A stretch of DNA of 64,000 nt from Candidatus Woesearchaeota archaeon. GTDB lineage: Archaea; Nanobdellota; Nanobdellia; Woesearchaeales; JASKKU01. The translations under genes were made by a program, and so were the position numbers. Below are positions 8,978-58,486 of this stretch, one piece after another. The stretch spans positions 7,663 through 71,662 of the forward strand of contig JASKKU010000002.1 in assembly GCA_030154045.1 (NCBI GenBank). Reading direction: 5' to 3'. Numbering within the stretch: the first letter of the stretch is position 1; every line of letters begins with the position of its first letter. The notes beneath the pieces were generated by a model. That model was not told where the DNA came from, did no database searches, and worked only from the letters and a program-made list of their open reading frames with translations.

Positions 8978-9095
8978 AAAGGAGTATTTTCGTTTCAGTT
9001 AAAAATTTTTCCAAATAATCTACATAAAAGTGAAAACTTTTCGTAAAAGTAGAACAAAACATTTAAATTTTTAAGATTTTTACAATTTCTTGAAA

Positions 9096-9374: not shown

Positions 9375-9464
9375 TTCGTTTATTTTTGTATTTTTAGAAA
9401 TTTTTTAGAACTTCTTTTGAGGAGTGACATACTTTTTTAAATTTCTTTTTCTTTTTTCACTTCG

Positions 9465-30078: not shown

Positions 30079-31523
30079 TTTTCATAGCAGTATAACAAGT
30101 TGTTAGAGATATTTAATTTTTGTTTGAGCATTTCTAAATCAACCGCTTTTAGTGTATCTATGTTAAAGTCTTTTCTCTCAAAGTCAGTTAGCATGAGACA
30201 TTGAGCATTATGTTCTTTAAGAAAATCAATGATACTGATTTCTAGAGGACTATTATATGTTGATTTTAGTTTCAAAACTTCATCTTTATCTAATTCTGTG
30301 AAAACAGCACTGTGTTTTGTATAAAATTCAATTAAGCTTGAGGTTTCGCCACTCGAAAGAATATTTAATGGTTCTTCGCTCAGGTTATCTGTTTTTTCAA
30401 GAAAAACAATCATTTGATTCGGAATTGAATTTGCACGGTTAGTTATTATGGTTTGTGGCAAGTAGAAGACTGCAAACCCCAAATTTAAGAGTAACGCAAA
30501 AATAAGAAACAGGTTTTTGCTCCTATTATTGAATCGAGATTTCATAAAAAAAGAGTTTATCAAAGTTAACGCTTTGCTGGCGCTTGCGCTTAATGAAATT
30601 GTTAACAGGAGTAAGAGAAAATAAACATTCGTTAATCTGGTAATTAGAAAGATAAAACTTACAATTAACAGCGATGCAAGGATATAAAATTTTTTTGATG
30701 ATTTTTCGTCATTAGATATCTCAGAGTAGAGTGCATAGATTCCAAACAAGATGGTTGTTGGGCCAATTAAAGGAACTATGTATGAGATATTAATGTGCGT
30801 AAATGCTGTGGTTATGGGACTTAAGAATTCCTGAACAATTATTGCTAGGTTTTTATCAAGGAGATAATCTTTGAAGAAGAAGATATAATAAGCAGCATAT
30901 AAAAAAGTGGAATATATTGCAAGCTCTTTCTCAAAATTAAGAATTTTTTTTGATTCGAGCAAATGTAAAACTAAATACACATAAATTGCAATTATGAAGA
31001 ATGCGGATAGTGGACTTGAGATTACTAAAAGGGAAACTAATGCAATTAAACTTAAGCTAGCTTTTTTATTGTAGATTGAATCGATCCAAAAACTTACAGT
31101 GGCTAGCATCAAGATTATAACAAAAGTTTCATTGAACAAAGTGTTCAAAGTCATCAAATAGAATACAGGTGAAGTAACAAACAGTACTAATGCAAAAAAG
31201 GATTTTTTGTAATCGTCGCTAAAATGAGTGATCAATACATAAGTTAAAAACAACAGAATACTCGCAAGTACAATTGACAAAATTTTTAAGATCATCACTT
31301 GAGAACTAAAATTTACATTATAAGCCCTCAAAGGAAATAAAATTGCGTTTATAAAAAGATAAAATCCTTCATGTATGCCTTTTTCTTTACCTAGAGCCTT
31401 AACAAGATTTGAATAAGTTTCAGGATAACTTAAGTTTGGAGTTGAAAAAACTACAAACGCCTCTAAAAGAATGACTAAGAAAAAAGCGATATACAGGAAC
31501 CAGTACCTTTTTACAGCATTCAT
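30075..31523 (-). CDS. polytopic membrane protein with a C-terminal soluble domain (possible PMT/ArnT-like GT-C glycosyltransferase)
   Basis: About eleven TM helices are followed by a ~130 aa hydrophilic C-terminus. No WWDYG (AglB) motif was seen. Confidence 0.3.
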   Translation of the reverse strand: MNAVKRYWFLYIAFFLVILLEAFVVFSTPNLSYPETYSNLVKALGKEKGIHEGFYLFINAILFPLRAYNVNFSSQVMILKILSIVLASILLFLTYVLITHFSDDYKKSFFALVLFVTSPVFYLMTLNTLFNETFVIILMLATVSFWIDSIYNKKASLSLIALVSLLVISSPLSAFFIIAIYVYLVLHLLESKKILNFEKELAIYSTFLYAAYYIFFFKDYLLDKNLAIIVQEFLSPITTAFTHINISYIVPLIGPTTILFGIYALYSEISNDEKSSKKFYILASLLIVSFIFLITRLTNVYFLLLLLTISLSASASKALTLINSFFMKSRFNNRSKNLFLIFALLLNLGFAVFYLPQTIITNRANSIPNQMIVFLEKTDNLSEEPLNILSSGETSSLIEFYTKHSAVFTELDKDEVLKLKSTYNSPLEISIIDFLKEHNAQCLMLTDFERKDFNIDTLKAVDLEMLKQKLNISNNLLYCYEK

Positions 31524-38878: not shown

Positions 38879-41800
38879 ATGGGGGGTTTTGGATTTTTTG
38901 GTAGAAAATCTTTGCCGGATTTGGATGAGGAAATTGACTTAGATAAACTGTCTTCTCCAAACGATTCAGAGTTGTTAAATGAACTTAAAAAAGAGTTGGA
39001 AGAATTAAAGAAACAGCAACCGGAAAAACAATCTGCAAAGAAAATAAAAACCTCCAACAAAATAAAAGATTTTAAATCAATCGTTGAGATTGAATATTTC
39101 CTTAAAGAGATTGATGATGCTTTCTTTAAACAAAACATGGATATAATTAAACAAAAGATTATAGAGTTTATAGATAAAGTCCTTCCAGAAACTGCATTAT
39201 CATTTGAAATTTCTTTATTGGGTGATAAAGGGAAGTTGCTCAATAAAATTCATGTTATCAGGGAAGTTTATGGCGACTTAACCTTGGGAAAAAGTAGAAC
39301 TTCAAAATCAGAAGCAAAACAAAAGAAAGAGGCTGTTGAAACAAATCCTAAAGATAATGAAGATAAAAAGCCATCTATTAAGTTTAAAACCGACGAAGAT
39401 GAGAACGCTGTTAATGGTGTAGAAGCTAAAGGTAACATCGATTTTGATAAGCAGGCTGAAGCAATTCACATCTTGCGATTAGTGGACCCAAAAGAAGCAA
39501 TTAAGCTTGATTCAAAGAATATTCGTTCATTAGAAGAATTGAAAAGTTTTATTGAAACATTGCCAGAAAAAAAGTTTAACCTGTTAGTCTTGCCTTTGAA
39601 TCGTAGAAAGAACATTGCCAATTGGATTGAACATGTCATAGGTTACCCTGAGCTTGCTGAGAAATTGATGCTGTGCGAAACTAGAGACGAAATCCATTCA
39701 GTTCTTGATGAAATGTATGAGAGAGTTAAAGACCTTGTTGTTTATGGAAAAATAAATTCCGAGGAAGAAAACGTGAATCTTTTGCCTGATTCTGATTCAA
39801 ACGAGTTAGAAAGTGATAAGCCATCTACAGAGAATACAAACAAGGATTCTGATTTAGACAAAGAATCTCAAAAGAATAACATGAATATTAAAACCCCAAT
39901 TTTAAAATCTGAAAGTAATGCTGAACTTGAAGATGAAAACTTCCAGGAAGTTTCAGAACTTGACCAACAAAACGAGAACAATTTGAGCAGGATCCTTGAG
40001 CAATTGCCTTTGCTTTCAGAGGAACAATTCAAACAGAAACGGCCAGAAATTTTTAATATTTTTTTAAAAAATAAAATATCAAAGAAAGAACTCTTATTAT
40101 TTGTGAAGTGCAAAACCAAAGATGAGTTTGCCCAAACTTTAGAAGAATTTTTGTATTCTAGACCTGAGTTTGAAAATTCTCTTAAAAAACTCACGAAAGA
40201 TGAGACTACTTCCCTAGAAAAAGAATTAAGTTCCATCCTTGCTCTTACACAAATCAAAGAAAGCATTTCAGATGAAGCGCCTATTGAAGAAACAAATCAG
40301 CCTGAAACACAACAAAAAACCAAAAAACGTTCCATCTTCAAATTTGGAACCGAAAAGAAAACTGATGCTGTTGCTTCTAATCAAAAATCTCCTAAATTAA
40401 ATCCTGAACCTCAACTTGATTCCCAACTTGTTCTGCAAGATGACCTAAGCAACATCAAAAGACAAACAACTTTAAATCAAAAAGTAGGCAATAAACAAAA
40501 TCCAAAATTAGAGAACGCTTTTAGTGGTTCAATTAAGAGTTATGATTCAAATACAGCTTCAAGATTGAAAGATGATGAAAACTTCTTTGATTATGTTTCT
40601 CAACTTAAACAAGAGCTTGAAGTAATGAAAGAAAAGAATCTCGATTTGAATGTTTTGCCTCCACCAACCCTTGATGATAAAGCACAGCCTTCACAATTTG
40701 AAAAGGGGTTGTTTGACCTGGTTAAACCAGAGGTCAATGAATCTTTGTTTGATGCAAAAGAACGTTCAGTTGAAAAAATTTCTCAACAAGATACCTTTAC
40801 AAAAACAAAAGACGAGCTTATTAATACTTTAATGAGTGACAAACCTGATACAAAACAGGCTTTTAAAGAACAGAACACACAACAGATAAAAGGTCTTGGT
40901 TTGGATAATATAGGATTTAATCATCAAGCTGAAGAAATTAAAGAGACAGTCAAAATTAATTCTTTGGAGGAATTCGAGAAACAACTTCTTGAGAAAGAAC
41001 GCGAGCTTCTAGAAAAGAAAATTGAACTTCTAAAACGGAAGAGAGAACTTGAGCGCGAGAACTTAAACAAACTTATGCAAAACATCGAGCTCCAAGACGC
41101 TCTTCTAAGCAAACTTTCAGAAGAGAGGCCTTCGATTGAAGATAACTTTGAAACAAAATCTCAAAATCAAGGTTTAAGCAATGAACAAAAGACTAAAACT
41201 TTAGCAGATAATAAGCTTAAAACTCAGTCTTTGTCTATACAAGAAGCACACCAAGGAGCTAAAGTTGTGAAACCAGAAAACTCAAACGAACTTTTCGAAG
41301 TGAAAAAAGCGATTGATGAAATACAAAAAACTGTTAGTGAAATAAACCGAAAATTAACTTCAACAGAAAAAGAGGATTTATTCAATCAAAGCAATGTTAC
41401 CATAAAAACATTTAAAGAAAGTGCTAGAGATACTACAAAAAATAATGAGCAAATCTTAAATAATGCTGATGAGTTTTCTCTTGATGATCTTATATCTCTT
41501 GTTGACAATTTTTTAGGCAGAGATTCTTTTGATGATGCTGAAAAAATTATCATGAAAGCAAGAAACTTAATTAAAAACAATCGAACTTTGAATTCAAAAA
41601 GAGAATCCAATAATAAAACTCTTGCAACAAAAACAACAACTCACCAATTTAAAACAGTAGAAGCATCTTCACAATCTTCCAAAAGTCAAAAGAGTTTAGA
41701 TGCTTTTAAGGTTGGTCAAGAATCTAAAACTCAAGAATCAAAAACAAAAGACAATTCGGAACTAAATTCCAAGACTGAAAATCTAGTACAAGAATCAAGC

Positions 41801-42037
41801 TCACCGAACTTTGATAATATAGAGTCTGTTTCAAAAATCCAAGAAGATGAAGGCCTGAAAGCGGTGTCTAAAATTAATAACCAAGATTTGGCTCAAAATG
41901 TAGATTCTCAAACTTTAAATAAAATCTTGCAAGAAATTGATTTGCACCTGTCTCAAAACAATTTAGATGAAGCAGATAAAATAATTAGAGAAGCAAGCAA
42001 GTTGATTAATGCGAAGGAATCTTTTGAAAGCCATTAA
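38879..42037 (+). CDS. large low-complexity coiled-coil protein (1052 aa), hypothetical
   Basis: It is K/E/Q/N-rich with long heptad-like stretches (KQLLEKERELLEKKIELLKRKRELEREN). No TM helix is seen. The terminal segments are similar (DDAEKIIMKARNLIKNN / DEADKIIREASKLINAK). Confidence 0.45.
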   Translation: MGGFGFFGRKSLPDLDEEIDLDKLSSPNDSELLNELKKELEELKKQQPEKQSAKKIKTSNKIKDFKSIVEIEYFLKEIDDAFFKQNMDIIKQKIIEFIDKVLPETALSFEISLLGDKGKLLNKIHVIREVYGDLTLGKSRTSKSEAKQKKEAVETNPKDNEDKKPSIKFKTDEDENAVNGVEAKGNIDFDKQAEAIHILRLVDPKEAIKLDSKNIRSLEELKSFIETLPEKKFNLLVLPLNRRKNIANWIEHVIGYPELAEKLMLCETRDEIHSVLDEMYERVKDLVVYGKINSEEENVNLLPDSDSNELESDKPSTENTNKDSDLDKESQKNNMNIKTPILKSESNAELEDENFQEVSELDQQNENNLSRILEQLPLLSEEQFKQKRPEIFNIFLKNKISKKELLLFVKCKTKDEFAQTLEEFLYSRPEFENSLKKLTKDETTSLEKELSSILALTQIKESISDEAPIEETNQPETQQKTKKRSIFKFGTEKKTDAVASNQKSPKLNPEPQLDSQLVLQDDLSNIKRQTTLNQKVGNKQNPKLENAFSGSIKSYDSNTASRLKDDENFFDYVSQLKQELEVMKEKNLDLNVLPPPTLDDKAQPSQFEKGLFDLVKPEVNESLFDAKERSVEKISQQDTFTKTKDELINTLMSDKPDTKQAFKEQNTQQIKGLGLDNIGFNHQAEEIKETVKINSLEEFEKQLLEKERELLEKKIELLKRKRELERENLNKLMQNIELQDALLSKLSEERPSIEDNFETKSQNQGLSNEQKTKTLADNKLKTQSLSIQEAHQGAKVVKPENSNELFEVKKAIDEIQKTVSEINRKLTSTEKEDLFNQSNVTIKTFKESARDTTKNNEQILNNADEFSLDDLISLVDNFLGRDSFDDAEKIIMKARNLIKNNRTLNSKRESNNKTLATKTTTHQFKTVEASSQSSKSQKSLDAFKVGQESKTQESKTKDNSELNSKTENLVQESSSPNFDNIESVSKIQEDEGLKAVSKINNQDLAQNVDSQTLNKILQEIDLHLSQNNLDEADKIIREASKLINAKESFESH

Positions 42038-42154: not shown

Positions 42155-45100
42155 TTGGGTCTGATTCAAATGAAACTTTTTGGAAATAAAAAAGTATTCT
42201 TATTCTTTTTGTTAATTTTTATAACACTGCTGTTTTTATTTACCATAATTTCTCAATCTAATTTTGCCGTGGCAGGCTGCTGTTTAAACCCTGATAGCGA
42301 TTACCTCTGCCAAGATGTAAGTGTATCAGATTGTTGTAGTAATGATTATTCCTGTCAACAGACCTATTCTGAGAGCAATTGTGATTCTCTTCCTGAATGT
42401 GAACCTGTTTGTTGTTGTCATTATGATGAAAATGGCGTTGAAAGCTCGGCGGTTGTTCTTAACATCAGTTGTGATGGAAACAAGTTTGCGCTTTCAGGAA
42501 AGTCTTGTTCAGACATTTGTAATGATAACAAACCTGTGCCTGTTAGTGACGATTGTAATTTAAGTACGAACCCGCTTTCAAAAATAAACGTTGATTTTGA
42601 CCTATCAGGATATCCTAGAAAAATACTTTTAAATTGGGAAGATCCCTGTTTTGGCGAAGTCCTTTATTATAATGTTTCTCGTATTGACCTTGAATCCCGG
42701 ACACAAGAGCATTTGGATAACGTTATGCAAACTTCATATACAGATACTACCTTTAATTTTTTAACCAAATATCAATATAACATTACCGCAGTATATTCTA
42801 CCAATAAAGTCTACACAATACTCTCTGATACAATAAATACAGGCAATATTGAATGCTGGATGGCTCCTCCAGGAGCGTTTTGTATAGATTTTCCGTATTA
42901 TCTAAAGTACACGGGTTATTTTGGATATGATAATCAAGAAGCTTTCTCAAATTTTTTACAACAGGAGGGTTATGCTGAGAATTATAATGCTGCGTATAGA
43001 TGCGAAGGTCGGGATCTGAAATTAATACAAGATTGTGGTCGCAGTGGAAAGTTTTGTGTAATAGGAAGTAGTGGCGAACCAATATGCTCTGAAGCTAAGG
43101 ATTGTTCTACATATAATTATGATTTAGGATTAAATCCTGATAAAGAAGACTGTGAAAACAATGCAGGCTGTTATTTTGACTCTGGTGAGGGCTTGGGCGG
43201 CTTATGCTTATCTTGTGATGCTAGTTATTTAGACAGAACTTGCTATTCGTATAGGTCTAAGGAAGCGTGTGAAAAAGATCTATGTAGTTTTGCAGTTTCT
43301 ACAGGTGGGTGCGAATGGGTCTCTTTAAATGATGAATTAGGTTTGGGTGTTTGTATAGATAAATCAAACATCAATTGCAAGGATTGTAATTTATATCTTA
43401 AGGACTTGCCTTATCAGACTTGTGAAGACCTCTATAAAGAGGATAGCAGATTTTCAGGGTGCGCAATTTGTGGAATAATTGATAGTTGCACGCAGTATAA
43501 TAATAGCAACTTATGTATAGGTGGCCAAGAAGCTCAAATTGATTTAACAACACACAAGATTATACCTAGTGCCGACTTCTGTGGTTTAGGTGTCTGCGAT
43601 TATTTTGAGACTGATTCGACATGTGCTAAAAATATTGATTTAGACCCTGATGAAAGGGATTGTAACAAAGGAGGTTCAAATGAGCGGGAGCAATGTGAAA
43701 AAGATATTTTTGTTCCACAAGTTAAGTTAAAACTAGATTTTGACAAAGATGATTTTGAATTAGGCAAGAATATAACATTTATTGTCTCTGATAGACGAGA
43801 ATCAGAGACAGTTAACTTCTTTAGTTCTGGAGAAGTTCTCAGTGATGGCTATGCTCTATATCTTTGTGTAGGCTCTGATTGTTTCACCAAAGACCATTTG
43901 AGTTGGAAATCTTTTGATAAAACTTCTGTTTCATCCTGTGATTTAATCTCAGCAGGGCTAAATGTTCATACTTCTAATCCTCAGACACTATACTATTTTG
44001 TTAAAGACCCTTCAGGCAATGTTGCTGAAGTTCAATCTTTGAATATTGTAATAAATGCAACAAGAGTTTGTAAACCAGGAGATACTAGACCTTGCCCAAA
44101 ACAGCAAGGTGTATGTAATGGTGCTATCCAGCATTGTAATCTTGTTTGTCCCGCAGAGAATATTGGTTTTTATTCAAGGGATTGTTCTTTTGAGGAATAC
44201 TCAGATAATACCAATGGTCCGTACGAAGCTTTTGAAACAACTGTAGACGGTTTAGATAACGACTGTGACGGCTTGATTGATGAAGGTGCTAAGAAAGAAG
44301 TATTGTGTAATGGTATTGATGATAATGGTGATGGTCGAGTTGATGAAGGCTATCCTGATTTTGACGGGGACAACAACCCTGAAATTTGTGATTACAATAA
44401 TTTTGATGTTAGTAAAGATAGTGAGGGTCACATAATACACCATCCAAAAATAAAACAAGGAATTAACTTGACAAAATATGGTTATAGATACAATGCAAAA
44501 TATTGTGGCGCTGATTGTGTTGATTTAGATGCTGATAATGATGCAATTGTTGATTCTACTTCCACAGGCGAACCTATTGATAAAGAGAACACTACAAAAG
44601 TTGGCTGTATAGTTATCACTTCAGGTCCTTTTAAAGGGGTTGCAAAGGATTCAGACCAAGATGGTATTTGTGATGGTCTTGATAACTGCGTTAATGTAAA
44701 CCCTGATTGTGCAGTTGAAGGTTACAATTCTCCAAACAAGGACCTTATAGGATGCCCTGTAGATTGTAAAAGCGAGAGCTGTCTTGGAGAACCATACTGC
44801 CAAGAACAATGCAATTGTGATTCCTGTGCTGATTTTTATGGTATGTCCTCTTGTGATTATGCACACTGCACTTTGGGTTGTGGATGTTATTTTCAAACAG
44901 CAACCACTACATGTATGGATTGCTCTTTTGTGACTTCATGTGAAAAATACAATGATGCGCAAAGTTGCAGGAGCAATTCGTGTCATTTGTTGTCCAAATG
45001 TGAATGGAGTGATAGTATAGGTTGTTATACTGATAATGATAATGATGGGATTCCAGATGATAAAGACCCTTGTCCTTTTGATTCGCAAAATGACGCTGAT

Positions 45101-48100
45101 GGCGATGGTTTTTGCTGGAAGGAATCGAATTCTAATCTAGTTGGGAAGACTGTAGATGTTAATGGTAGAACTTTTGTCTTAAAAGGAGGGTTTGATTGCG
45201 ATGACAATAATGATGAAATTTATCCTAGAACAGACTTTGTTGAAGGTAACGAGTCTTTGTGCGATTTTAAGGATAATGATTGTGATGGCTTAATTGATGA
45301 AGGTTGTCCTTGTGTTAAAGGAGACTTTAGGTCTTGTGGTAATCCGTTTTTAGACTATTCGGAGTTCTCGAAATGTAATCGAGGTATACAATATTGTATT
45401 GATGGGGTTTGGTCTGATAATTGTTCGGGGTTTAAAGGTCCAGAAATTGATAACGAGGCTGAACAAAATTTTAAGAGTACTAAGTATTGTGATGGTTTTG
45501 ATAATGACTGCAATGGTCTTATAGATGATAAATGCCCTTGCTTGCCTGATGAGACGATTCCTTGCGGTACTGATTTGGGCGTATGCAGTTTTGGTTATAG
45601 AAAATGCGGCGATGACTTGAGGTTTGAAGACAAATGTGTTTATACAAACGATTCCCAAAAACCTCAAAAGGAAATCTGTGGTAATTATCTAGATGATGAT
45701 TGTGATGGTTCCATAGATGAAGGTTGTCCATGTGTCGAAGGTCAAACAATGTCTTGTCCTGATTCAACTTCTTTAGTTTTTTCAAACTCTCAGAATGCTT
45801 ATACATCTGTTTTTAACTCGGCATGCAGACAAGGCGTACAAAAATGTATCTCAGGAGTTTGGACTACCTGTGACGGTTTTGTAGGCCCTCAAGTGATGGT
45901 AGAAGACCCTTCAACAAATCCTCAACTGTGCGATTCTAAGGATAATAATTGTGATGGCTTAATTGATGAAGGTTGTAGCTGTTATTCTAATCAGAGCTGT
46001 GCAACCAATTGCGGTTGGGGAACTCAGGAGTGTGAAGCCGGGATTTATTCAGATGAATGTATTGGCGCAAGAGTTCCTTCTGCTGAAAAGTTAGATAATG
46101 TAGATAATGATTGTGATGGTTTGATTGATGAAGGTTTCCCTGAAAAATACTGCGATGGCAGAGATGATGATGGTGACGGTTGGGTTGATGACGGCTGCCC
46201 TGATTTTGATGGGGATAATGACCCAAGGATTTGTGACTTTTCAAATCCTCTACAAGATAAAGAAGGGAAGATTCACTTTAAGACAAAAGACAAGAAGTAT
46301 TACTGTGGCGCAGATGCAATCGATTTAGATAAAGATAATGATGGAGTGTTAGATGATTCAGACAGAGACCCTTCAACTCCTTTAGGATGTGAAGTTAATC
46401 GGGATAATGGGATTGCCATAGACACTGATGGAGACGGTATCTGTGATGGCCTTGATAAATGCCAGGAAAGTTTGCCAGGTTGCCCTGTTTATGGCTATGA
46501 CTCTTCAGATAAGGATGTTATAGGTTGTCCTAAGGACTGCGCAAATTCTAAGTGTATAACTTCAAGTTATTGTAAGTGTCCATCGTGTGATGTTTGTGAG
46601 GAATCTTTCTTAATGCCACAGGGTTGCCAGCCGTTGCAATGCTCTTACTGTGCTATGGGACAGTGCGCAATTTCTGAGGTTGGTGAGTCTGAACAATGTA
46701 CTTCTTGTACAAACATAAAAAGTTGCGAAGGTTATATTACTGAAGAAGATTGTAATCGCAATCCTTGTTTAACAAATGTTTCTTGCGTGTGGAATGGTAC
46801 AAACTGCTTGCTAGATACTGATGGGGATGGTTTAGCAGATAATATTGATCCTTGTCCGCAGGATAAATTGAACGATAACGATGGTGATGGTTATTGTGCA
46901 CACCAAGCAAACGATGACTTTGTAAAAAGAGGGGAATTGTTTGGAGGAAACGATTGCAATGATAATGATGCTAGTATTCACATAGGCTGTGGTTGTATTG
47001 TTGATAAAGACAATGATGGGTATGGTCAAGGTTGCTTATGGGGCCAAGATTGTGATGATACTGATCCAGAAAAAAATACACATTGTGACAACGGTTGTAT
47101 TGAAGATATGGACGGTGATGGCTTTGGTAGAGGTTGCTCAGCAGGCCCTGATTGTGATGACTCTAATGCTACGATAACTAATCAATGTGATCCCAGTGTG
47201 TTTTGTTCAAATGGTTACTTAGATAATGATGAGAGTGATATAGATTGTGGTGGAATTTGCGAGCCTTGTGATGCGGGTAAAAAATGTAAAACTGATTCAG
47301 ATTGTAAATCAAATATTTGTAACCGCGGTTTATGTTATGATGAAGAATTATGCACCAATGGAATAAAAGACGATTTTGAATCGGATGTGGATTGTGGTGG
47401 ACCTTGTAATCTTTGCCAGAATGGACAGAGCTGTATTAGTGATTTAGATTGTAAATCAAACAATTGCGTTAATGGAGTATGTTCAATACCTACTTGCGAT
47501 GATAACAAGAGAAACCAGGATGAAACTGACGTAGATTGTGGAGGGCATATCTGTAAACCTTGCGATATTGGAAAGCATTGCAAAGCAAACAGCGATTGCA
47601 TCTCATCAAAATGCGATCAAGATACTCAAAAATGTATCCCTTCAAAAGAAACTTCGGTAACAAAAAAAGATTCAGATGGAGATGGAATGCCTGATTATTG
47701 GGAATTAAAATATGGTTTGAATCCAAATGATGGCTCTGATGCTGATTTAGATTTAGACAAAGATGGTTTGTTTAATTATAAGGAATACATTCTAAACCTA
47801 GATCCAACAAATCCAGATACTGATGGCGACGGAATTAAAGACGGAAAAGAAGTTGATAAAGGTCTAGACCCAAGAGTTCCAGATAAAAGAGGACCTCTCG
47901 GATTGATTATTTCACTAATAATCTTATTGACTGGTGGCGGCTTAGGTTATGTATATCGGGATAAATTATGGTTCTGGCTTAATAAGTACGGTATTACAGA
48001 TTTTGTCTATAAAGCTCTTAAAAAATCAGGAATTTTAGACTTTGTTTATCTAAAATTGCTCAAAAAGACACCGCCAACGCTTGAAGCAATAAAGAAAGTA

Positions 48101-48328
48101 AAGACTCCAAAAACAACACAAAATATAAACATTAACGAAAAACAAAAAGTGATTAAATCTAAACCTGCTCAAGTAAAACCTGCTCCGATTCAGCCGAAAA
48201 AGCCAAAAGTCTCTGAAAAACTTGAAAAGAAAATTAAAGAAAAGTCCAAGATATTTGACGCTTTTGAAACAGAAGATACTGAAAAAAATAAAAAAGATGA
48301 GGATCTGTTTAAGGAGTTTGAAAAATGA
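42155..48328 (+). CDS. giant cysteine-rich cell-surface protein (2057 aa): signal peptide, MopE-like DNDCDGLIDEG repeats, thrombospondin-type-3-like Ca-binding repeats, C-terminal TM anchor
   Basis: An N-terminal signal/TM sequence (VFLFFLLIFITLLFLF) is followed by a Cys-dense ectodomain. The ectodomain has six DNDCDGLIDEG motifs, D-x-D-x-DG-x-C-D-G-L-D-x-C repeats (DQDGICDGLDNCVNVNPDC), and DSDGDGMPDYWELKYGLNPND..DTDGDGIKDG. A TM helix (LGLIISLIILLTGGGLGYVY) and a K/P-rich tail follow. Confidence 0.7.
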   Translation: MGLIQMKLFGNKKVFLFFLLIFITLLFLFTIISQSNFAVAGCCLNPDSDYLCQDVSVSDCCSNDYSCQQTYSESNCDSLPECEPVCCCHYDENGVESSAVVLNISCDGNKFALSGKSCSDICNDNKPVPVSDDCNLSTNPLSKINVDFDLSGYPRKILLNWEDPCFGEVLYYNVSRIDLESRTQEHLDNVMQTSYTDTTFNFLTKYQYNITAVYSTNKVYTILSDTINTGNIECWMAPPGAFCIDFPYYLKYTGYFGYDNQEAFSNFLQQEGYAENYNAAYRCEGRDLKLIQDCGRSGKFCVIGSSGEPICSEAKDCSTYNYDLGLNPDKEDCENNAGCYFDSGEGLGGLCLSCDASYLDRTCYSYRSKEACEKDLCSFAVSTGGCEWVSLNDELGLGVCIDKSNINCKDCNLYLKDLPYQTCEDLYKEDSRFSGCAICGIIDSCTQYNNSNLCIGGQEAQIDLTTHKIIPSADFCGLGVCDYFETDSTCAKNIDLDPDERDCNKGGSNEREQCEKDIFVPQVKLKLDFDKDDFELGKNITFIVSDRRESETVNFFSSGEVLSDGYALYLCVGSDCFTKDHLSWKSFDKTSVSSCDLISAGLNVHTSNPQTLYYFVKDPSGNVAEVQSLNIVINATRVCKPGDTRPCPKQQGVCNGAIQHCNLVCPAENIGFYSRDCSFEEYSDNTNGPYEAFETTVDGLDNDCDGLIDEGAKKEVLCNGIDDNGDGRVDEGYPDFDGDNNPEICDYNNFDVSKDSEGHIIHHPKIKQGINLTKYGYRYNAKYCGADCVDLDADNDAIVDSTSTGEPIDKENTTKVGCIVITSGPFKGVAKDSDQDGICDGLDNCVNVNPDCAVEGYNSPNKDLIGCPVDCKSESCLGEPYCQEQCNCDSCADFYGMSSCDYAHCTLGCGCYFQTATTTCMDCSFVTSCEKYNDAQSCRSNSCHLLSKCEWSDSIGCYTDNDNDGIPDDKDPCPFDSQNDADGDGFCWKESNSNLVGKTVDVNGRTFVLKGGFDCDDNNDEIYPRTDFVEGNESLCDFKDNDCDGLIDEGCPCVKGDFRSCGNPFLDYSEFSKCNRGIQYCIDGVWSDNCSGFKGPEIDNEAEQNFKSTKYCDGFDNDCNGLIDDKCPCLPDETIPCGTDLGVCSFGYRKCGDDLRFEDKCVYTNDSQKPQKEICGNYLDDDCDGSIDEGCPCVEGQTMSCPDSTSLVFSNSQNAYTSVFNSACRQGVQKCISGVWTTCDGFVGPQVMVEDPSTNPQLCDSKDNNCDGLIDEGCSCYSNQSCATNCGWGTQECEAGIYSDECIGARVPSAEKLDNVDNDCDGLIDEGFPEKYCDGRDDDGDGWVDDGCPDFDGDNDPRICDFSNPLQDKEGKIHFKTKDKKYYCGADAIDLDKDNDGVLDDSDRDPSTPLGCEVNRDNGIAIDTDGDGICDGLDKCQESLPGCPVYGYDSSDKDVIGCPKDCANSKCITSSYCKCPSCDVCEESFLMPQGCQPLQCSYCAMGQCAISEVGESEQCTSCTNIKSCEGYITEEDCNRNPCLTNVSCVWNGTNCLLDTDGDGLADNIDPCPQDKLNDNDGDGYCAHQANDDFVKRGELFGGNDCNDNDASIHIGCGCIVDKDNDGYGQGCLWGQDCDDTDPEKNTHCDNGCIEDMDGDGFGRGCSAGPDCDDSNATITNQCDPSVFCSNGYLDNDESDIDCGGICEPCDAGKKCKTDSDCKSNICNRGLCYDEELCTNGIKDDFESDVDCGGPCNLCQNGQSCISDLDCKSNNCVNGVCSIPTCDDNKRNQDETDVDCGGHICKPCDIGKHCKANSDCISSKCDQDTQKCIPSKETSVTKKDSDGDGMPDYWELKYGLNPNDGSDADLDLDKDGLFNYKEYILNLDPTNPDTDGDGIKDGKEVDKGLDPRVPDKRGPLGLIISLIILLTGGGLGYVYRDKLWFWLNKYGITDFVYKALKKSGILDFVYLKLLKKTPPTLEAIKKVKTPKTTQNININEKQKVIKSKPAQVKPAPIQPKKPKVSEKLEKKIKEKSKIFDAFETEDTEKNKKDEDLFKEFEK
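44305..45115 (+). repeat. internal duplication copy A within the giant surface-protein gene
   Basis: Protein segment CNGIDDNGDGRVDEGYPDFDGDNNPEICDY...DADGDGFC is collinear with segment CDGRDDDGDGWVDDGCPDFDGDNDPRICDF...DNDGDGYC of copy B. Confidence 0.6.
46151..46898 (+). repeat. internal duplication copy B within the giant surface-protein gene
   Basis: See copy A. Shared blocks are YCGADxxDLDxDND, DxDGICDGLDxC, GYxSxxKDxIGCPxDC and DxDPCPxD. Confidence 0.6.
47204..47640 (+). repeat. three tandem ~45-aa Cys-rich repeats (D-x-D-C-G-G-x-C-x-x-C ... S-D-C-x-S-x-x-C)
   Basis: The three units are CSNGYLDNDESDIDCGGICEPCDAGKKCKTDSDCKSNICNRGLC, CTNGIKDDFESDVDCGGPCNLCQNGQSCISDLDCKSNNCVNGVC and CDDNKRNQDETDVDCGGHICKPCDIGKHCKANSDCISSKCDQDTQKC. 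Confidence 0.65.
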
Positions 48329-48780
48329 AAAAGGCAGCAATACAACTAAGTTTTGGATTAGTTCTTACAATACTTATTATCGTTGCAATCTTTTTTGTTG
48401 CACTGAAAGGTATTTCAGTATTGATGTCTAATGTATCTCAAATGCAAAAAGACCAATTTGTTTCTGATCTCACAAGTTTTTACAAGCAAACCCTGAGACT
48501 GCCTTCAGGTTCATCCATTCCAGTTAAAATCAGTTCAAAATTTGATACACTTTGCTTTTATAATAAAAATGGTGATGGTTCTTTAAATAATCTGGCGCCT
48601 TATGAAGATGTTCTCACTATAGAAACAAAAAACGTCTTTGGAATATATCGTGGCAAACTTATTCCATTAACCTCTTTTTCTTTAGCAACTCCAAAAAAAG
48701 AGGTTTGTTTTAATAGAACTACCTCAGGCCTGTTTAATTTCACAATGATTTCAAAAGGCGATAGTATAGACATAAAATGA
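48325..48780 (+). CDS. small secreted/membrane protein with a class III (type IV pilin-like) signal-peptide-like N-terminus
   Basis: The N-terminus is MKKAAIQLSFGLVLTILIIVAIFFVA: a short basic tip, a QLSF motif, then a hydrophobic helix. The start overlaps the stop of the giant gene (ATGA). Confidence 0.4.
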   Translation: MKKAAIQLSFGLVLTILIIVAIFFVALKGISVLMSNVSQMQKDQFVSDLTSFYKQTLRLPSGSSIPVKISSKFDTLCFYNKNGDGSLNNLAPYEDVLTIETKNVFGIYRGKLIPLTSFSLATPKKEVCFNRTTSGLFNFTMISKGDSIDIK

Positions 48781-49811
48781 AATTGTTTAAGAAATCTGCA
48801 TTACAAATCTCATTTAATCTTATTGTATCCATACTTATTGCAATTGTAGTGTTTATTGTAATCTTTAAGACAAGCCAAGTCTTTTTAGATTATGCTCATA
48901 AAAAAGGTTCTTTTGATGCGTTTACTTATCTTGAATTGAATTTAAAGAATCTTTATAGCGAATCCGATTATGTAAAAGCAATAGAATTAGATAAACCAAC
49001 ACAGATCTCAGTTATTTATCCAAACATAGTTATCCCAAGGATTGAAAAAACAATTGATATCAATAATAAACTCATAATTGCACCTGCAAATATGTTCACA
49101 TCATCATTAACTTTGTTCAGCAAGAAATCTGAGTTTCCAATAGATTCCATAAATTATTTGTTTATCTTTCCTAAGGACAAATACTTGTTGCTTTACAATT
49201 CTTCAGATAAGCTAACAGAGATTGTAAACTCAGAGTTGCCTGATAAAATAACCAATTTAGAAAAAAAAGATGAATATTTAATTCATAAATTCATAGTTGA
49301 TAAACCTCTTGAGATTTCCCAGATTTGTGGTAAAAAGGATTACTGCCTCGTGATTGTATTTAACTCCCCTTCAACTTATGATGATTTATTAAATATATTT
49401 AAAGACTATAGGACCCTTGAAATTCTACACGTTTCAGGCAATGAAACTTTTGGTAAAGTAACTTTGGCTTCAGGCCAGAATGTAAGTTACTTCGATAGAT
49501 ATACTTTACTTTCTGCAATAATCAGTAATAATTTTGAGAACTATAATGAATTTATTAAGACTTTAGATAAATATGTTAACTTGACTTTTTTAGTAGAATC
49601 TAAAAGGTTGTCTTATCTGTTTGATTTACAGCCTACTGAATTATGTAAAAATTTAACTCAAGATTTAAACAATACTTTATTTAATATAACAAGACTTATG
49701 AATTCTTTAAGTAATGATATTAACGATAATATTTTTTCAGAACTTCACGGAAATCATTCAAAAGTTTTAGAAATAAATTATAAGCTAAAAGAAAATGATT
49801 GCTACGAATAA
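48777..49811 (+). CDS. pilin-like/N-terminally anchored protein (344 aa)
   Basis: The N-terminus is MKLFKKSALQISFNLIVSILIAIVVFIVIF, the same KK-[AS]A-[IL]Q-[LI]SF pattern as the preceding gene. An ATGA overlap is present. Confidence 0.4.
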   Translation: MKLFKKSALQISFNLIVSILIAIVVFIVIFKTSQVFLDYAHKKGSFDAFTYLELNLKNLYSESDYVKAIELDKPTQISVIYPNIVIPRIEKTIDINNKLIIAPANMFTSSLTLFSKKSEFPIDSINYLFIFPKDKYLLLYNSSDKLTEIVNSELPDKITNLEKKDEYLIHKFIVDKPLEISQICGKKDYCLVIVFNSPSTYDDLLNIFKDYRTLEILHVSGNETFGKVTLASGQNVSYFDRYTLLSAIISNNFENYNEFIKTLDKYVNLTFLVESKRLSYLFDLQPTELCKNLTQDLNNTLFNITRLMNSLSNDINDNIFSELHGNHSKVLEINYKLKENDCYE

Positions 49812-50283
49812 AAGCCAAATAAAAAGCATACAAACATTTTTTTTGGTATTCTTTTTTATAATTATACTTGTAATTATTTTGTTAATTGTTTTTCAGAATA
49901 TTTACTCTTCTAATTTAAAATCGTCCAATGACCTTTTGTCAAAGATGGCTTTACAGAAAGCAATCGCAATTACAAAATTCCCTTTGTTTGTAAATCAAGA
50001 AAATGAGTTTTTTGATATCTATCGAGTTAAAGCTTATCTTGATTTAAAAGAATCTCATCCAGAGCTTGAGTCTTGGTTGGAAGCAAATTTTGGAGACAGC
50101 ATTGTTGAGCTTGTATTGTTAGATGACAGCTTAGACCCTAGAGAAGAATTTTTGATATACAATCACACACCTGTTAATTTTAAAAAGGATGTTGCGTTGA
50201 AATTTCAATTGCCTATTTTAGTATATAATTCGACTCTAAGAAAATCAACTTTAGGTTTGCTTAATATCACGCTTTTTGAGTGA
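49795..50283 (+). CDS. small N-terminally anchored protein (162 aa), possible minor pilin-like
   Basis: The N-terminus is MIATNKSQIKSIQTFFLVFFFIIILVIILLIVF. It overlaps the previous gene by 17 nt. Confidence 0.3.
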   Translation: MIATNKSQIKSIQTFFLVFFFIIILVIILLIVFQNIYSSNLKSSNDLLSKMALQKAIAITKFPLFVNQENEFFDIYRVKAYLDLKESHPELESWLEANFGDSIVELVLLDDSLDPREEFLIYNHTPVNFKKDVALKFQLPILVYNSTLRKSTLGLLNITLFE

Positions 50284-50770
50284 GCATATGCAAAAGAAAG
50301 CGCAATCAGAAATTTTAGGTATTGTGTTTATGATAGTTATAGCTTTAGTTTTAATATTGATCCTTTTATTTTATGGTAATAGACCAACCTTTGATGAGCA
50401 AGGGAATTTAATAATTATAGCCAATCGTTATTATAATACGATATTTTCAGATAATCTTTATACAAACTGTAGCCAAGATATGTCCTTTTTAACACTTTTG
50501 AGATATTATTTTATGGGATTAGTAACAGAATGTGATGATGGCTCTAATGTAGAATCGTTCTTAAACAATTATATAAACAAAACCCTAAGATATTTTTTGG
50601 CGAACAACGGCTTGGCATACAAACTAATCATTTCTGATTCTCACAACAGTTTAAGTTTTGAGAATGGAGTTTGCAACGGTTTTGTTTATTACCTCCCAAC
50701 CCAAACAATACTTAAACCTGACTCAGGCCGCATTAACATTTCTCTTAGCGTTTGTAAGAGAAAAAGATAA
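50276..50770 (+). CDS. small N-terminally anchored protein (164 aa), possible pilin-like
   Basis: The N-terminus is MSEHMQKKAQSEILGIVFMIVIALVLILILLFY. KKAQ|SEIL resembles a prepilin peptidase site. An 8-nt overlap is present. Confidence 0.35.
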   Translation: MSEHMQKKAQSEILGIVFMIVIALVLILILLFYGNRPTFDEQGNLIIIANRYYNTIFSDNLYTNCSQDMSFLTLLRYYFMGLVTECDDGSNVESFLNNYINKTLRYFLANNGLAYKLIISDSHNSLSFENGVCNGFVYYLPTQTILKPDSGRINISLSVCKRKR

Positions 50771-52195: not shown

Positions 52196-54055
52196 ATGAA
52201 TTTAAATCTATTTAAGAAGAGCCTTGTTTTTATTACTTTGTTATTCTGTTTTGCTTTTCTTGTTTTTGCAAATCCTGATTTAAAGATAATTGAAGTAATG
52301 TATAATCCTCCAGGAGATGATTTTTCTAGCGAATTCTTTGAATTGTGCAACTTGGCCAATTTCTCAATTGATTTAACAAATTATAAAATTATAGGTGTCT
52401 CTTTAAATTTAACCAACATTTCAATAAAACCTAAAAAGTGTTTAATCTTCGCGCATTCAAAAAACGATTTTTTCAATATCTATAACCTCTCTTTAAATTA
52501 TTCTAATCAAACATTTGAGTTTAAAGGTTATTTGAAGAACAGTAATTTTTCTTTAATGCTCCTTAATGAAAACAAAACTGTTGTTGACACTTTTACTTAC
52601 GATGGTTCTTTGGCAAACGGAAACGGCTTAAGTTTAAACTTTTGTAATAATTCTATTTTTGAAGAAGAACCTTCGCCTTTTTATTTTGATTTTGAAAGTT
52701 GCATTCTAAATGAAACCACAAATAAAACTTTTTTCGACGAAACCTTGAATGAAACACTGGTAAACCAAACTTTAGAACAAAACAATACGAACTTAAGTAA
52801 TACAACCCAAACTTATCCATATGAAAATTGTTCTAATACAACAAATCAACCAATAAGCATAACAAACTCAAGTACTATCAACATTCATATTGATTCAATT
52901 GATGGCAATTTTGTTTCTTATCAGATTTATTCAAAATGTTCCTACATCTATTGGATTGAAGACTTGTTTCAAAACATAATCAAACCAAAACTTGTTAGCA
53001 ACACAACCACGAAAAAGCAATTTACCTCAAAATATGATAAAGCCTTTTTCATTAAAGCCAAAGAACTCTGCCAAAATCAAACCTCATCTAAATTAGTTCT
53101 ACTAAATACTTCTTTTGACGAAGATTTTGATGTTGAATTTCATAAGTATAAAAGTAATAAAGTTAAAATAACACTATTAGCGGACTACCTCAAGTTTAAT
53201 TCTTCAATATTGTGTTATCTTAATTCAAATAAAGAAATCTTTTCATTTTATTCAGATTCAATAAAACCTCTAACTGATTCAAGTTTGGAATTCCAATTCT
53301 ATATCCCAGAACAATTCCTTAACTCAGGCAATAACAAAATTGAATGCATAATACAAACTTCAAAAGATTCTAGAACTTTTGTAAAGACTTTTGATTATCA
53401 GAAACCTGAATTAAAACAATCATGCACAGCAAAAACATTAAACAAACTCGCGCAGAGTGAAACTTTTAAAATTAATTCGTTTTATACTCTAGACACTTAT
53501 TTGAAATCAAAGAACCATTTCTTTATGTCTGTTGAAAGACCTTCATCAAGCCCAAAACAAGTGTATTTGGAGATCTTTGAATTAAAAAATTCCTCACTTT
53601 TGAATTTAAGTGAGACTAAAATAAAAACTGATTTTTACATTCCTTTGAATAAAACAAATACAACTTTGCTTGCCGTTATTAAACACAACAAGAATATTTT
53701 AACTTACAAAACTTTGAATATCTCGTTACAATTAAAGAAAATCCCTTCAAAAGAATCAAAATCTGAAACTAAAACTCTTAAATTAGAGAATGTTTCGAGA
53801 AACGAACCGTTGAATACTTTACAATTAAATAATACAGTATTCAATCTTAAATTAAATGAAACCAATGAAAGCACTAACTTTAGTGAAAACAACTTTTCAC
53901 AAGATGAAATTACTTCTTTTTTCAGTTATGATACAAATTCGAGTAATGAGTTTAAAACGAAACTTAAAGAAACATTCTTTTATCTTTTTACAACCATCAT
54001 TATATTATTAATTTTACTAACATTCTATTTTGTTAGTAAAAAAAAGAAATCCTAA
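52196..54055 (+). CDS. secreted surface protein with an N-terminal lamin-tail domain (LTD), an N-glycosylation-sequon-rich body and a C-terminal TM anchor
   Basis: A signal peptide (LVFITLLFCFAFLVFA) is followed by the LTD signature LKIIEVMYNPPGDDFSSEFFELCNLANFSIDLTNYKI. More than 20 N-x-S/T sequons are present. The C-terminal TM is FFYLFTTIIILLILLTFYFV followed by KKKKS. Confidence 0.5.
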   Translation: MNLNLFKKSLVFITLLFCFAFLVFANPDLKIIEVMYNPPGDDFSSEFFELCNLANFSIDLTNYKIIGVSLNLTNISIKPKKCLIFAHSKNDFFNIYNLSLNYSNQTFEFKGYLKNSNFSLMLLNENKTVVDTFTYDGSLANGNGLSLNFCNNSIFEEEPSPFYFDFESCILNETTNKTFFDETLNETLVNQTLEQNNTNLSNTTQTYPYENCSNTTNQPISITNSSTINIHIDSIDGNFVSYQIYSKCSYIYWIEDLFQNIIKPKLVSNTTTKKQFTSKYDKAFFIKAKELCQNQTSSKLVLLNTSFDEDFDVEFHKYKSNKVKITLLADYLKFNSSILCYLNSNKEIFSFYSDSIKPLTDSSLEFQFYIPEQFLNSGNNKIECIIQTSKDSRTFVKTFDYQKPELKQSCTAKTLNKLAQSETFKINSFYTLDTYLKSKNHFFMSVERPSSSPKQVYLEIFELKNSSLLNLSETKIKTDFYIPLNKTNTTLLAVIKHNKNILTYKTLNISLQLKKIPSKESKSETKTLKLENVSRNEPLNTLQLNNTVFNLKLNETNESTNFSENNFSQDEITSFFSYDTNSSNEFKTKLKETFFYLFTTIIILLILLTFYFVSKKKKS

Positions 54056-56548: not shown

Positions 56549-58486
56549 TTATAGAATCTCAACAATGTCTCGTTTTATCCTAGCAATACAGTTCTCTGCT
56601 ATTTTATCAATCTCCCAGTTATCAGAGGCTTTTCTAACCTGATTTAAGAAATCGGCTATCTGCCTAAACAACCTGATTAAATCTCCTTCTTTCATGCTTG
56701 TTAGTTTTACTATTTCACTGAACTCCTTGCCTTCGCTCCATTCTATAACGATTCTCATAAGTCTCAAAAGATTTTGCCTATTTAATTTCCTGAATAGAAC
56801 AGGACTTTCCTTCCTGACAACCTTTAAAATCCTATTGTATCTCTTTTTGTCCTTGTAAATCTTAAAGTGTTCTCGATCTATCTTTCTATCATAAATTATT
56901 GCAGCAATTAATGCATTTATTTCAGACTCTTCTAAACTCTTAAAGATGTTTGTTTTGAACATTTCAGTTATTTCAATTTCGTGGTCATAAATTTTTGAGG
57001 CGAACATGCCTTTCTCTGTTAAACTCTTTCCGTCTTTTTCTATATAACCTAAAGCCATAAGTTTCTTTACTCTGTTCTTAAATCTGGACCAAATCCTGAT
57101 TGCAGTATCCTCTTGTTTTTTTAAGAAATAGTAGAAGCTCTTCTTTAGAATTTCTTTAATCTGCTCTTCATCATAATGCATCATCATGTTTAATACTAGA
57201 TTGTATGTTATGTAAAATCTTGACACTAAAGGTTCTTTATCGCCAGAAGTAATGTACCTTATCCTTTCAAAATCTGCAAAACGTATATCAACCAAGGCTA
57301 TTGCCCAACCTTCTTTATCAATGCCTCTTCTACCAGCTCTACCAGCCATCTGCCAGTATTCTTTTGAAGTCAGATATCTAAAGTTTCTGCCATCGTACTT
57401 CTCTAAGCTGTCAAAGGCAACGCTTTTTGCTGGCATGTTTATTCCAACAGCAAAGGTTTCAGTAGCATACAGAACTTTAATCAATCCTTGAGAAAACAAA
57501 TCCTCAACTATTTCTTTTAAAACAGGTAAAAGCCCCGCATGATGATAGGCTATGCCCTTTTTTATAATTCTTCTAAGTTTATTAACTGAGAACAAATCCT
57601 TTACCGAAGGGAACTCGTTAATATGTTTGTTAAAAGTGTAAATGATCTGTTCTTTTTCTTTGTTGTTTGTAAAATCAAATCTTTGATACAACTGCTCGGA
57701 TTTCTTTTCACAATCTTTTCTGGAAAAATTGAAATATATTATTGGAAGAAAACCTTCTTCTTTTACATCAGTAATCAAATCAATGTGATCTGCTGCTTTT
57801 ATGTTCATCAATTTTCTTTTTTCTTTCTTGTTTCTTGCTCTTCTTGAAAGCAATGGATTGCTTTTAACAAATTGTTCTAATTCATCTAAGGTTACAATAC
57901 CTAATGTTTTTTCATAAACAAAATGTTTCAAAGGAACAGCTCTCTTTGTGTTTATAACAACTTCAACCTTATGATTCTTTGTTTCTTCAATCCATTTAGC
58001 AAATTCTTTGGCGTTAGGGATTGTAGCGCTTAAGCATAAGAATCTGACAGTTTCTGGAGAAAAAATTATTGATTCTTCCCAGACAGTTCCTCTTTCTAAA
58101 TCATTAATGTAATGAATCTCATCAAAGATTACATACGAAATGCTTTTAACGAACTCGTCTTTAGTTACGAGCATGTTTCTATAAACTTCAGTCGTCATGA
58201 TAAGAACAGGAGCTTCAGGATTAAAAACGAAGTCGCCAGTTAATAATCCGATTTTTTCTTCTCCGTAAGCCTCGCAGAATTGTTTATACTTCTGATTTGA
58301 TAAAGCTTTAATTGGGCTTGTATAAATTATAACTTTACCTGTATCAATATACTTGTCTATTAAATAGTCCGCAATTAAGGTTTTTCCAGTGCCTGTTGGT
58401 GCAGATACAACGACTGAATGATTGTTATCAATAGCTTTGACAGCATCCTCTTGAAACTTGTCTAAAACATAATTCCTGAATTTCAT
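56549..58486 (-). CDS. Ski2-like DExH-box SF2 helicase
   Basis: Motif I is SAPTGTGKT, motif II is DEIHYI, and ATETFAVGINMPAKSVAF is a Ski2/Mtr4-type motif. QMAGRAGRRG is also present. Confidence 0.7.
   Translation of the reverse strand: MKFRNYVLDKFQEDAVKAIDNNHSVVVSAPTGTGKTLIADYLIDKYIDTGKVIIYTSPIKALSNQKYKQFCEAYGEEKIGLLTGDFVFNPEAPVLIMTTEVYRNMLVTKDEFVKSISYVIFDEIHYINDLERGTVWEESIIFSPETVRFLCLSATIPNAKEFAKWIEETKNHKVEVVINTKRAVPLKHFVYEKTLGIVTLDELEQFVKSNPLLSRRARNKKEKRKLMNIKAADHIDLITDVKEEGFLPIIYFNFSRKDCEKKSEQLYQRFDFTNNKEKEQIIYTFNKHINEFPSVKDLFSVNKLRRIIKKGIAYHHAGLLPVLKEIVEDLFSQGLIKVLYATETFAVGINMPAKSVAFDSLEKYDGRNFRYLTSKEYWQMAGRAGRRGIDKEGWAIALVDIRFADFERIRYITSGDKEPLVSRFYITYNLVLNMMMHYDEEQIKEILKKSFYYFLKKQEDTAIRIWSRFKNRVKKLMALGYIEKDGKSLTEKGMFASKIYDHEIEITEMFKTNIFKSLEESEINALIAAIIYDRKIDREHFKIYKDKKRYNRILKVVRKESPVLFRKLNRQNLLRLMRIVIEWSEGKEFSEIVKLTSMKEGDLIRLFRQIADFLNQVRKASDNWEIDKIAENCIARIKRDIVEIL

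Follow-up and report, generated by a model that had tools for sequence, protein, structure and literature searches.

An old block duplication among the calcium-loop modules of a giant, cysteine-rich predicted surface protein from a Woesearchaeota archaeon

Background

A 64-kb stretch of chromosomal, low-GC (about 32%) DNA from a metagenome-assembled genome (MAG) of Candidatus Woesearchaeota, referred to below as the window, contains one giant gene whose product is rich in repeated aspartate- and cysteine-containing motifs. The open reading frame (ORF) runs from a TTG codon at 42155 to 48328 on the forward strand, the database copies of the protein begin at the ATG at 42170, and MDK2849484.1, annotated as a 'hypothetical protein' of a Candidatus Woesearchaeota MAG, has exactly the same sequence as the product. 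An earlier note on this DNA had described six MopE-like motifs and an internal duplication within the gene, and had interpreted them as domain amplification within a surface protein of a fast-evolving, host-interacting kind. The locus raises the question of whether the repeats are recent and labile, an artefact of assembly, or an old and stable part of the protein, and what such a protein might do at the cell surface. The comparisons reported here show that the repeats are ordinary modular growth and not a mis-assembled region, and that the two large blocks are best read as the product of one old segmental duplication. The case is an ordinary one of surface-protein growth through calcium-loop module duplication, and it illustrates that 'repeat-rich' need not mean 'fast-evolving', since no other part of the giant protein is as constrained as the repeats.

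Motif copies and block duplication

When the window was searched with degenerate codons that encode D-[ND]-[ND]-C-[DN]-G-x-[IV]-D, there were exactly six matches, all of them in frame within the giant ORF, and none in 100 dinucleotide-preserving shuffles, in agreement with the six DNDCDGLIDEG-type copies reported previously. At the protein level the motifs start at amino acids (aa) 701, 1040, 1116, 1180, 1263, and 1317, and the exact peptide DNDCDGLIDEG is present in three of the six (Table 1). Four of the positions given in the earlier note (44255, 45500, 45692, and 45941) were exact, while the other two (45273 and 46104) were one base off and are corrected to 45272 and 46103. The Pfam family PF11617 (Cu-binding_MopE) was matched at 51.7 bits by the whole giant protein (gathering cut-off 27) and at 49.5 bits, in four stretches, by aa 999-1312, the region of the tandem array that lies between the blocks. 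A 50-nt stretch around copies 2 and 5 (45258-45307 versus 45927-45976) is 96% identical within units that are otherwise far more diverged, and may be a short gene-conversion tract. The remaining motif-repeat copies are 60-88% identical in nucleotides and unequal in length, save for a few 34-nt motif matches (91-94%). A minus-strand ORF at 45350-45667, inside the giant gene, was regarded as a chance ORF.

A BLASTP comparison of aa 691-1000 with aa 1306-1600 returned a single collinear alignment, which paired aa 697-998 (block A) with aa 1313-1592 (block B) over 307 columns with 42% identity and 10% gaps (E 3e-55, composition-adjusted). The Smith-Waterman score of the two blocks was 623, as against 66.6 +/- 10.8 (maximum 103) in 500 shuffles (z about 52) and at most 141 for other parts of the giant protein that are equally rich in Cys and Asp. 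The existence of two collinear paralogous blocks is thereby confirmed, but the limits first proposed for them (44305-45115 and 46151-46898) were slightly too small and are extended in Table 1. Because the blocks start at 44243 and 46091, motif copies 1 and 6 are their first elements. The motif is followed in each block by a DDxGDG loop, DFDGDN, the thrombospondin type 3 (TSP3)-like strings YCGAD...DLDxDND and DxDGICDGLDxC, a Cys-rich core of about 100 aa, and a closing DxDGDG...DPCP...DxDGDG pair. All five sub-motifs that had been listed as shared were found in both blocks, the last of them reading N-I-D-PCPQD in block B. Self-comparison extended the similarity beyond the short motifs at the protein level, but in nucleotides it is left only in the first ~140 nt (76% identity) and in short motif stretches; since nucleotide similarity is mostly gone, the collinearity of the blocks is a protein-level signal.

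Age of the duplication and rate of evolution

Between blocks A and B the proportion of synonymous differences (pS) was 0.78, which is saturated, and the nonsynonymous divergence (dN) was 0.50; dN/dS between the blocks is not computable because the synonymous sites are saturated. An ortholog of 2,051 aa, fully syntenic and 57.5% identical, was found in GCA_964416905.1, which represents a second species (locus L005), and it carries both blocks and all six motifs. Between the two species block A is 64% identical to block A and block B 59.5% identical to block B, while A-B comparisons give 44-47%, so the duplication is older than the species split. Across all four block copies 26 of the 32 Cys columns are invariant. 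Nine variants of the giant protein (>=90% identity, independent assemblies) are all 2052-2053 aa long, share the same architecture with an unchanged number of repeats, and differ at 22 positions only.

No part of the giant protein is better conserved than the repeat region. Identity to the GCA_964416905.1 ortholog is 64% in block A, 65% in the array, and 59.5% in block B, compared with 47-56% in the N-terminal 650 aa, and 177 of the 178 Cys are conserved. For the same pair of species the corresponding values are 81% for gyrA, 92% for Cpn60, 63.5% for a class I tRNA synthetase, and mostly 40-49% for the adjacent genes, with the first small downstream protein (57%) about equal to the giant protein.

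At the level of strains, the giant gene of the window differs from that of GCA_030445965.1 at 18 sites (13 non-synonymous and 5 synonymous), which gives a dN/dS of about 0.64, above 0.1 (P = 2e-4) and indistinguishable from 1; the gyrA, synthetase, and adenosyltransferase genes show no differences. Only 0-1 differences were counted over 32-43.8 kb and 38 over 43.9-51.9 kb, the latter stretch comprising the 3' two-thirds of the giant gene, four small pilin-like genes, and two small minus-strand ORFs, and 61 were found in a DEAD/DSHCT helicase gene (56549-58486, minus strand). This clustering suggests recombination tracts. Ten of the 22 strain-variable residues of the giant protein lie in aa 646-998 (block A and the preceding unit), compared with one in the array and one in block B. 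Nine of the 22 fall within a 190-aa stretch, aa 632-821 (44049-44617), that covers the unit before block A and the start of block A; the variable sites of this stretch co-vary among strains in haplotype-like groups, and G706D, present in some strains, is located inside motif copy 1.

Over longer distances, giant proteins of 2052, 2051, 2026, 1755, 1625, and 1545 aa have, in the same order, 6, 6, 7, 1, 1, and 1 MopE motifs and 2, 2, 1, 1, 1, and 0.5 blocks. The distant relatives have both ends in common, about 700 aa at the N-terminus and about 400 aa at the C-terminus, and differ in the middle, where some have four to six sub-repeats of about 60 aa instead. Because the counts of middle modules differ between distant lineages, module turnover is real but slow. 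Domain amplification within a surface protein, as proposed in the earlier note, is therefore upheld by a signal segment, an ectodomain, an anchor helix, and a module number that varies between lineages. The description 'fast-evolving' applies in part, as distant lineages do not have the same number of modules and strains are mildly more polymorphic around block A, but it does not suit the repeats themselves, with their saturated synonymous sites, their rank as the best-conserved region, the almost complete set of Cys retained over the whole protein, and an ortholog that has both blocks.

Topology, domain families and calcium loops

The giant protein is predicted to be laid out as a type I membrane protein with a signal sequence, an ectodomain, and one anchor helix. 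The ectodomain has 1,865 residues, of which 178 are Cys (9.5%) and 13.7% Asp, and 16 N-glycosylation sequons are present in the protein. The terminus of the cytoplasmic tail, KSKIFDAFE...DEDLFKEFEK, is kept in ortholog P0002 and reads DSEIFDIFEE in P0003; it may be a short linear docking motif.

Loops of the form Dx[DN]x[DN]G occur 20 times in the ectodomain, where 0.98 are expected from composition (maximum 5 in 1000 shuffles). The MopE motif is itself a loop of the Dx[DN]xDG type (D-N-D-C-D-G-x-x-D-E) with the downstream D-E present. Dx[DN]xDG loops are calcium binders in many unrelated folds, including that of thrombospondin, and have a strong extracellular bias (PMC3123361). The TSP3 family PF18884 was matched near the anchor helix (Table 1) when aa 1829-2057 were scanned alone (cut-off 25), and PF02412 (TSP_3) scored 14.2 bits in block A, below its cut-off of 25, and gave no match in block B. 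The giant protein can be placed in known repeat classes, namely PF11617 and, more tentatively, TSP3-type calcium loops. Pfam returned no family at cut-off for the blocks, and the NCBIfam scan of the giant protein gave no match. At 42560-42901 (aa 136-249), within the conserved N-terminal region, fibronectin type III (PF00041) gave a weak signal that stays below cut-off (E 0.014).

An exhaustive profile search with the blocks returned 1,420 proteins at E <= 1e-3 and nine at E <= 1e-30. Most matches cover only profile positions ~75-135, which coincide with the PF02412 repeats of bacterial OmpA-family proteins, and the TSP_3 regions of these proteins reached E values down to about 1e-20. Such OmpA-TSP3 proteins also dominate a word-indexed homolog search with the block profile, which is informative only on the TSP3 relationship. 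Near-complete blocks were found in about eleven representative proteins, several of which have two to four copies; the named carriers are Woesearchaeota or 'Nanoarchaeota' MAGs, with the product called 'putative metal-binding motif-containing protein'. When 15 block cores from 9 proteins were aligned, 21 columns were invariant and 17 of these were Cys. This ~200-residue Cys-rich core, with its 17 invariant Cys, is apparently confined to Woesearchaeota/Nanoarchaeota.

A confident AlphaFold2 model of the block B core (46295-46930, aa 1381-1592) was built from the 15-copy alignment, with a mean predicted local distance difference test score (pLDDT) of 86.7 and a predicted template modelling score (pTM) of 0.68. 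An earlier model of the whole of block B, based on a four-sequence alignment, had a pLDDT of 49 and was discarded. A fold search with the core model in PDB and BFVD revealed no resemblance, and searches of PDB sequences with the block profile, the MopE array, and the whole protein gave nothing significant; apart from unrelated weak matches, no solved chain matched the array (E <= 10) or the whole protein (E <= 1). Literature searches on Woesearchaeota/DPANN Cys-rich, MopE, or pilin cassettes yielded no description of this protein family. The undescribed block core and the conserved pilin-like cassette treated below are modestly novel side results.

Gene neighbourhood

Directly downstream of the giant gene is a run of four overlapping small genes. 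At its N-terminus each encoded protein has a short, basic K-[AS]-[AQ] leader followed by ~20 hydrophobic residues, as in MQKKAQSEILGIVF. These N-termini resemble the archaeal class III (pilin-type) signal peptide at the level of the signature: a basic leader, a small residue at -1, and a hydrophobic helix, as in MQKKA/QSEILGIVFMIVIAL and MKKS/QAEILAVLF. Across the four loci compared, most small proteins keep the pattern; a single ortholog is, as called, without the leader. Pfam and NCBIfam scans of the small proteins gave no match, and profiles of two of them recovered no significant PDB sequence.

The giant gene and the four small genes are conserved together in five lineages (the window, L005, L007, L008, and L013). 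Upstream is a gene for a low-complexity protein of 1,052 aa, which has counterparts of 1052, 1060, 1017, and 1024 aa at the same position in L004 (a strain of the window's species), L005, L007, and L013; this protein could be a cytoplasmic partner of the Lys-rich tail of the giant protein. The resulting six-gene cassette (Lys/Glu-rich protein, giant protein, and four pilin-like proteins) is present in at least four lineages, with a shorter form in a fifth, and is a concrete candidate for a cell-contact apparatus of uncultured episymbiont-like archaea.

Table 1. Position of the features of the giant gene and of its flanking genes in the window
Feature	Position	Strand	Remarks
Lys/Glu/Ser-rich low-complexity protein, 1,052 aa, directly upstream of the giant gene	38879-42037	+	No Pfam/NCBIfam match
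Giant gene	42170-48328	+	2,052-aa product; ATG start per database proteins
N-terminal basic stretch and hydrophobic segment (signal sequence), followed by the first Cys-rich region	42170-42274	+	Kyte-Doolittle scan
Block A, aa 697-998	44243-45148	+	One of two paralogous 280-300-aa composite modules
MopE motif copy 1, DNDCDGLIDEG, opens block A	44255-44287	+	Codon-pattern search
Tandem array, aa 1010-1312, of Cys-rich units of 44-83 aa, each ended by a MopE motif (copies 2-5)	45182-46090	+	
MopE motif copy 2, DNDCDGLIDEG	45272-45304	+	Codon-pattern search
MopE motif copy 3, DNDCNGLIDDK	45500-45532	+	Codon-pattern search
MopE motif copy 4, DDDCDGSIDEG	45692-45724	+	Codon-pattern search
MopE motif copy 5, DNNCDGLIDEG	45941-45973	+	Codon-pattern search
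Block B, aa 1313-1592	46091-46930	+	Paralog of block A
MopE motif copy 6, DNDCDGLIDEG, opens block B	46103-46135	+	Codon-pattern search
Two 34-aa repeats (DxDGDG loop and DCDD half-motif)	46991-47190	+	70% identical in nucleotides
Three ~48-aa repeats, CxNGxxDxxE[ST]D[IV]DCGGxCxxC...DCxSxxC	47204-47644	+	Conserved in all family members
Bacterial-type TSP3 calcium-loop repeats, PF18884	47669-47854	+	35 bits
C-terminal transmembrane helix (one), aa 1912-1935	47888-47959	+	Kyte-Doolittle scan
Lys-rich cytoplasmic tail, 122 aa	47960-48325	+	Kyte-Doolittle scan
Small gene 1 downstream	48325-48780	+	Pilin-like N-terminus
Small gene 2 downstream	48777-49811	+	Pilin-like N-terminus
Small gene 3 downstream	49795-50283	+	Pilin-like N-terminus
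Small gene 4 downstream	50288-50770	+	Pilin-like N-terminus

Comparison with known systems

Repeat proteins of the PF11617 class are abundant in Myxococcota/Deltaproteobacteria, and the motif is named after MopE of Methylococcus. They are large secreted proteins in which C-x-D-G-x-D-N-D-C-D-G-x-x-D-E follows a small Cys-rich unit in tandem, as in the array described here. A genome scan with the pattern DCDGL[IT]DE gave at least 600 stretches; among the matches listed there were four weak confirmed loci, all bacterial, and three of these four were Deltaproteobacteria or Myxococcales MAGs. The giant protein differs from these in its archaeal host and in having six copies only, two of them embedded in a larger composite block. 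MopE structures are present in the PDB, and the MopE copper site, as described by Helland et al. in 2008, reportedly consists of His ligands and an oxidised Trp. No similarity of the giant protein to the copper-binding body of MopE was found, and PF11617 covers only a small region of MopE (PMC6189053). Because the family is short in MopE and no similarity to solved MopE was found, the label 'MopE-like' used in the earlier note is retained for the short motif but not for a copper protein or its function.

Thrombospondin and COMP type 3 repeats share with the blocks DxDxDG...D strings and flanking Cys (DxDGICDGLDxC, DxDPCPxDxxNDxDGDGxC), but neither was recovered by sequence or by fold (3fby, E about 1), and TSP3 strings are without the ~100-aa Cys-rich insert that the blocks hold. 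Among DPANN archaea, the giant membrane-anchored 'SPEARE' proteins of nanohaloarchaea have been proposed as host-interaction devices (PMC10266531). They offer a parallel: in both cases the gene is the largest, or nearly so, of a small genome, and the protein combines a Sec signal and a membrane anchor with a huge ectodomain (PMC10266531). There is no sequence relationship: SPEARE proteins have 5,000-9,400 aa, immunoglobulin/fibronectin-like domains, and a VirB4-like ATPase, whereas the giant protein has 2,052 aa, is rich in Cys and Asp, and is without an enzymatic domain. The tip of bacterial type IV pili, formed by minor pilins and PilY1, is similar in that a large calcium-loop gene lies beside four genes for small pilin-type proteins. 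This is an analogy only, as the giant protein is not homologous to PilY1 and, in contrast to the tip complex, has its own membrane anchor and is accompanied by small proteins that match no pilin model.

Functional interpretation

We consider it moderately probable that the giant protein is a calcium-stiffened surface stalk or adhesin that arose by old module duplication and has pilin-like neighbours. In this reading the ectodomain grew as small acidic calcium-loop modules, braced by cysteines, were duplicated again and again, each block combining a MopE loop, TSP3-like loops, and a lineage-specific Cys-rich core. Some 20 calcium loops and ~178 cysteines, serving as disulfides or metal ligands, could produce a long, rigid, protease-resistant stalk, on which the conserved N-terminal 700 residues would be held at a distance from the cell. 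Calcium binding, rigidity, adhesion, and a pilus-like link are what we infer for the giant protein, which together with the four downstream pilin-like proteins may form a surface attachment or appendage complex. A role in host interaction would be plausible for a DPANN archaeon, and the stalk or adhesin reading agrees with the host contact proposed for the unrelated giant surface proteins of other DPANN archaea (PMC10266531).

Several points weigh against such a stalk or adhesin. The organism looks anaerobic (a 4Fe-4S protein is encoded in the window and a radical-SAM gene in L005), and extracellular disulfides are for this reason not a given. The four small proteins have no match to Pfam or NCBIfam pilin models or to solved pilins, and the window, in which not every ORF was scanned, showed neither a pilus ATPase nor a prepilin peptidase. 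The block core is without a match in Pfam, PDB sequences, or PDB folds. Calcium binding is read from the loop motifs, and the name of PF11617 itself points to copper.

A structural protein of the surface-layer (S-layer) kind, with the calcium-loop and cysteine modules forming a static cell-wall lattice, is an unlikely alternative. In its favour are the C-terminal membrane anchor, the large acidic ectodomain with its 16 sequons, the conserved chromosomal position amid housekeeping genes, and the strongly conserved framework. Calcium-dependent assembly is moreover common in S-layers. Against a lattice stand the middle modules that vary widely between lineages, which would be unusual for a lattice-forming protein, the tight coupling of the giant gene to four pilin-like genes, and scans of the giant protein against Pfam and NCBIfam in which no S-layer domain was detected. 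Copper handling like that of MopE/CorA of methanotrophs, in which the six motifs would be copper sites for metal capture, is very improbable. It draws on the above-cut-off match to a family named Cu-binding_MopE and on the 'putative metal-binding motif-containing protein' label that NCBI gives to relatives, but no solved chain, whether named MopE or otherwise, matches the array or the whole protein by sequence, the motif consists of Asp/Asn/Gly and one Cys in the Dx[DN]xDG calcium-loop pattern and is not a His-rich copper site, and a DPANN fermenter would presumably have no known copper enzyme to supply.

The view that the repeats expanded recently, form a hypervariable contingency locus, or were collapsed or expanded during assembly can be regarded as effectively refuted. 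Short-read assemblers can be misled by repeated motifs, the 50 nt around copies 2 and 5 are nearly identical, and strain polymorphism is locally raised; against this, most copies are only 60-88% identical in nucleotides and of unequal length, synonymous sites between the blocks are saturated, and the six motifs and both blocks recur in an ortholog of 57% identity. The nine independent-sample variants share one architecture at 2052-2053 aa, without the length variation of a contingency locus or recent tandem amplification, and because these independent assemblies agree in length an assembly artefact is excluded for practical purposes.

Beyond the stalk or adhesin favoured here, it is conceivable, though unlikely, that the giant protein and the four pilin-like proteins make up an undescribed surface organelle of Woesearchaeota/Nanoarchaeota, in which a short type-IV-pilus-like fibre or pseudopilus, joined to a calcium-stiffened, cysteine-knotted stalk with a new ~200-residue fold (the block core), would serve attachment to a host or partner cell. 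Such an organelle would correspond by analogy to the minor-pilin/PilY1 tip complex of bacteria, and differences in block or repeat number between lineages would tune its reach or specificity.

Other features of the window

An archaeal RNase P RNA (RF00373, 158.7 bits) at 9093-9376 on the forward strand fixes the domain of life, and the window is thus archaeal. Housekeeping genes of archaeal type are also present, including those for RadA, Nre, SecY, aIF5B, the thermosome, gyrase A, and several aminoacyl-tRNA synthetases. For two adjacent minus-strand ORFs of 472 and 482 aa (28660-31523), Pfam gave nothing at E <= 0.001. The forward strand encodes, at 52196-54055, a second protein that is predicted to lie at the surface. 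It is 619 aa long, matches the Lamin Tail Domain (PF00932) at 40 bits, contains many N-x-S/T sequons, and has a signal-like segment at the N-terminus and a hydrophobic anchor at the C-terminus; its position is kept in L004, L005, and L013.

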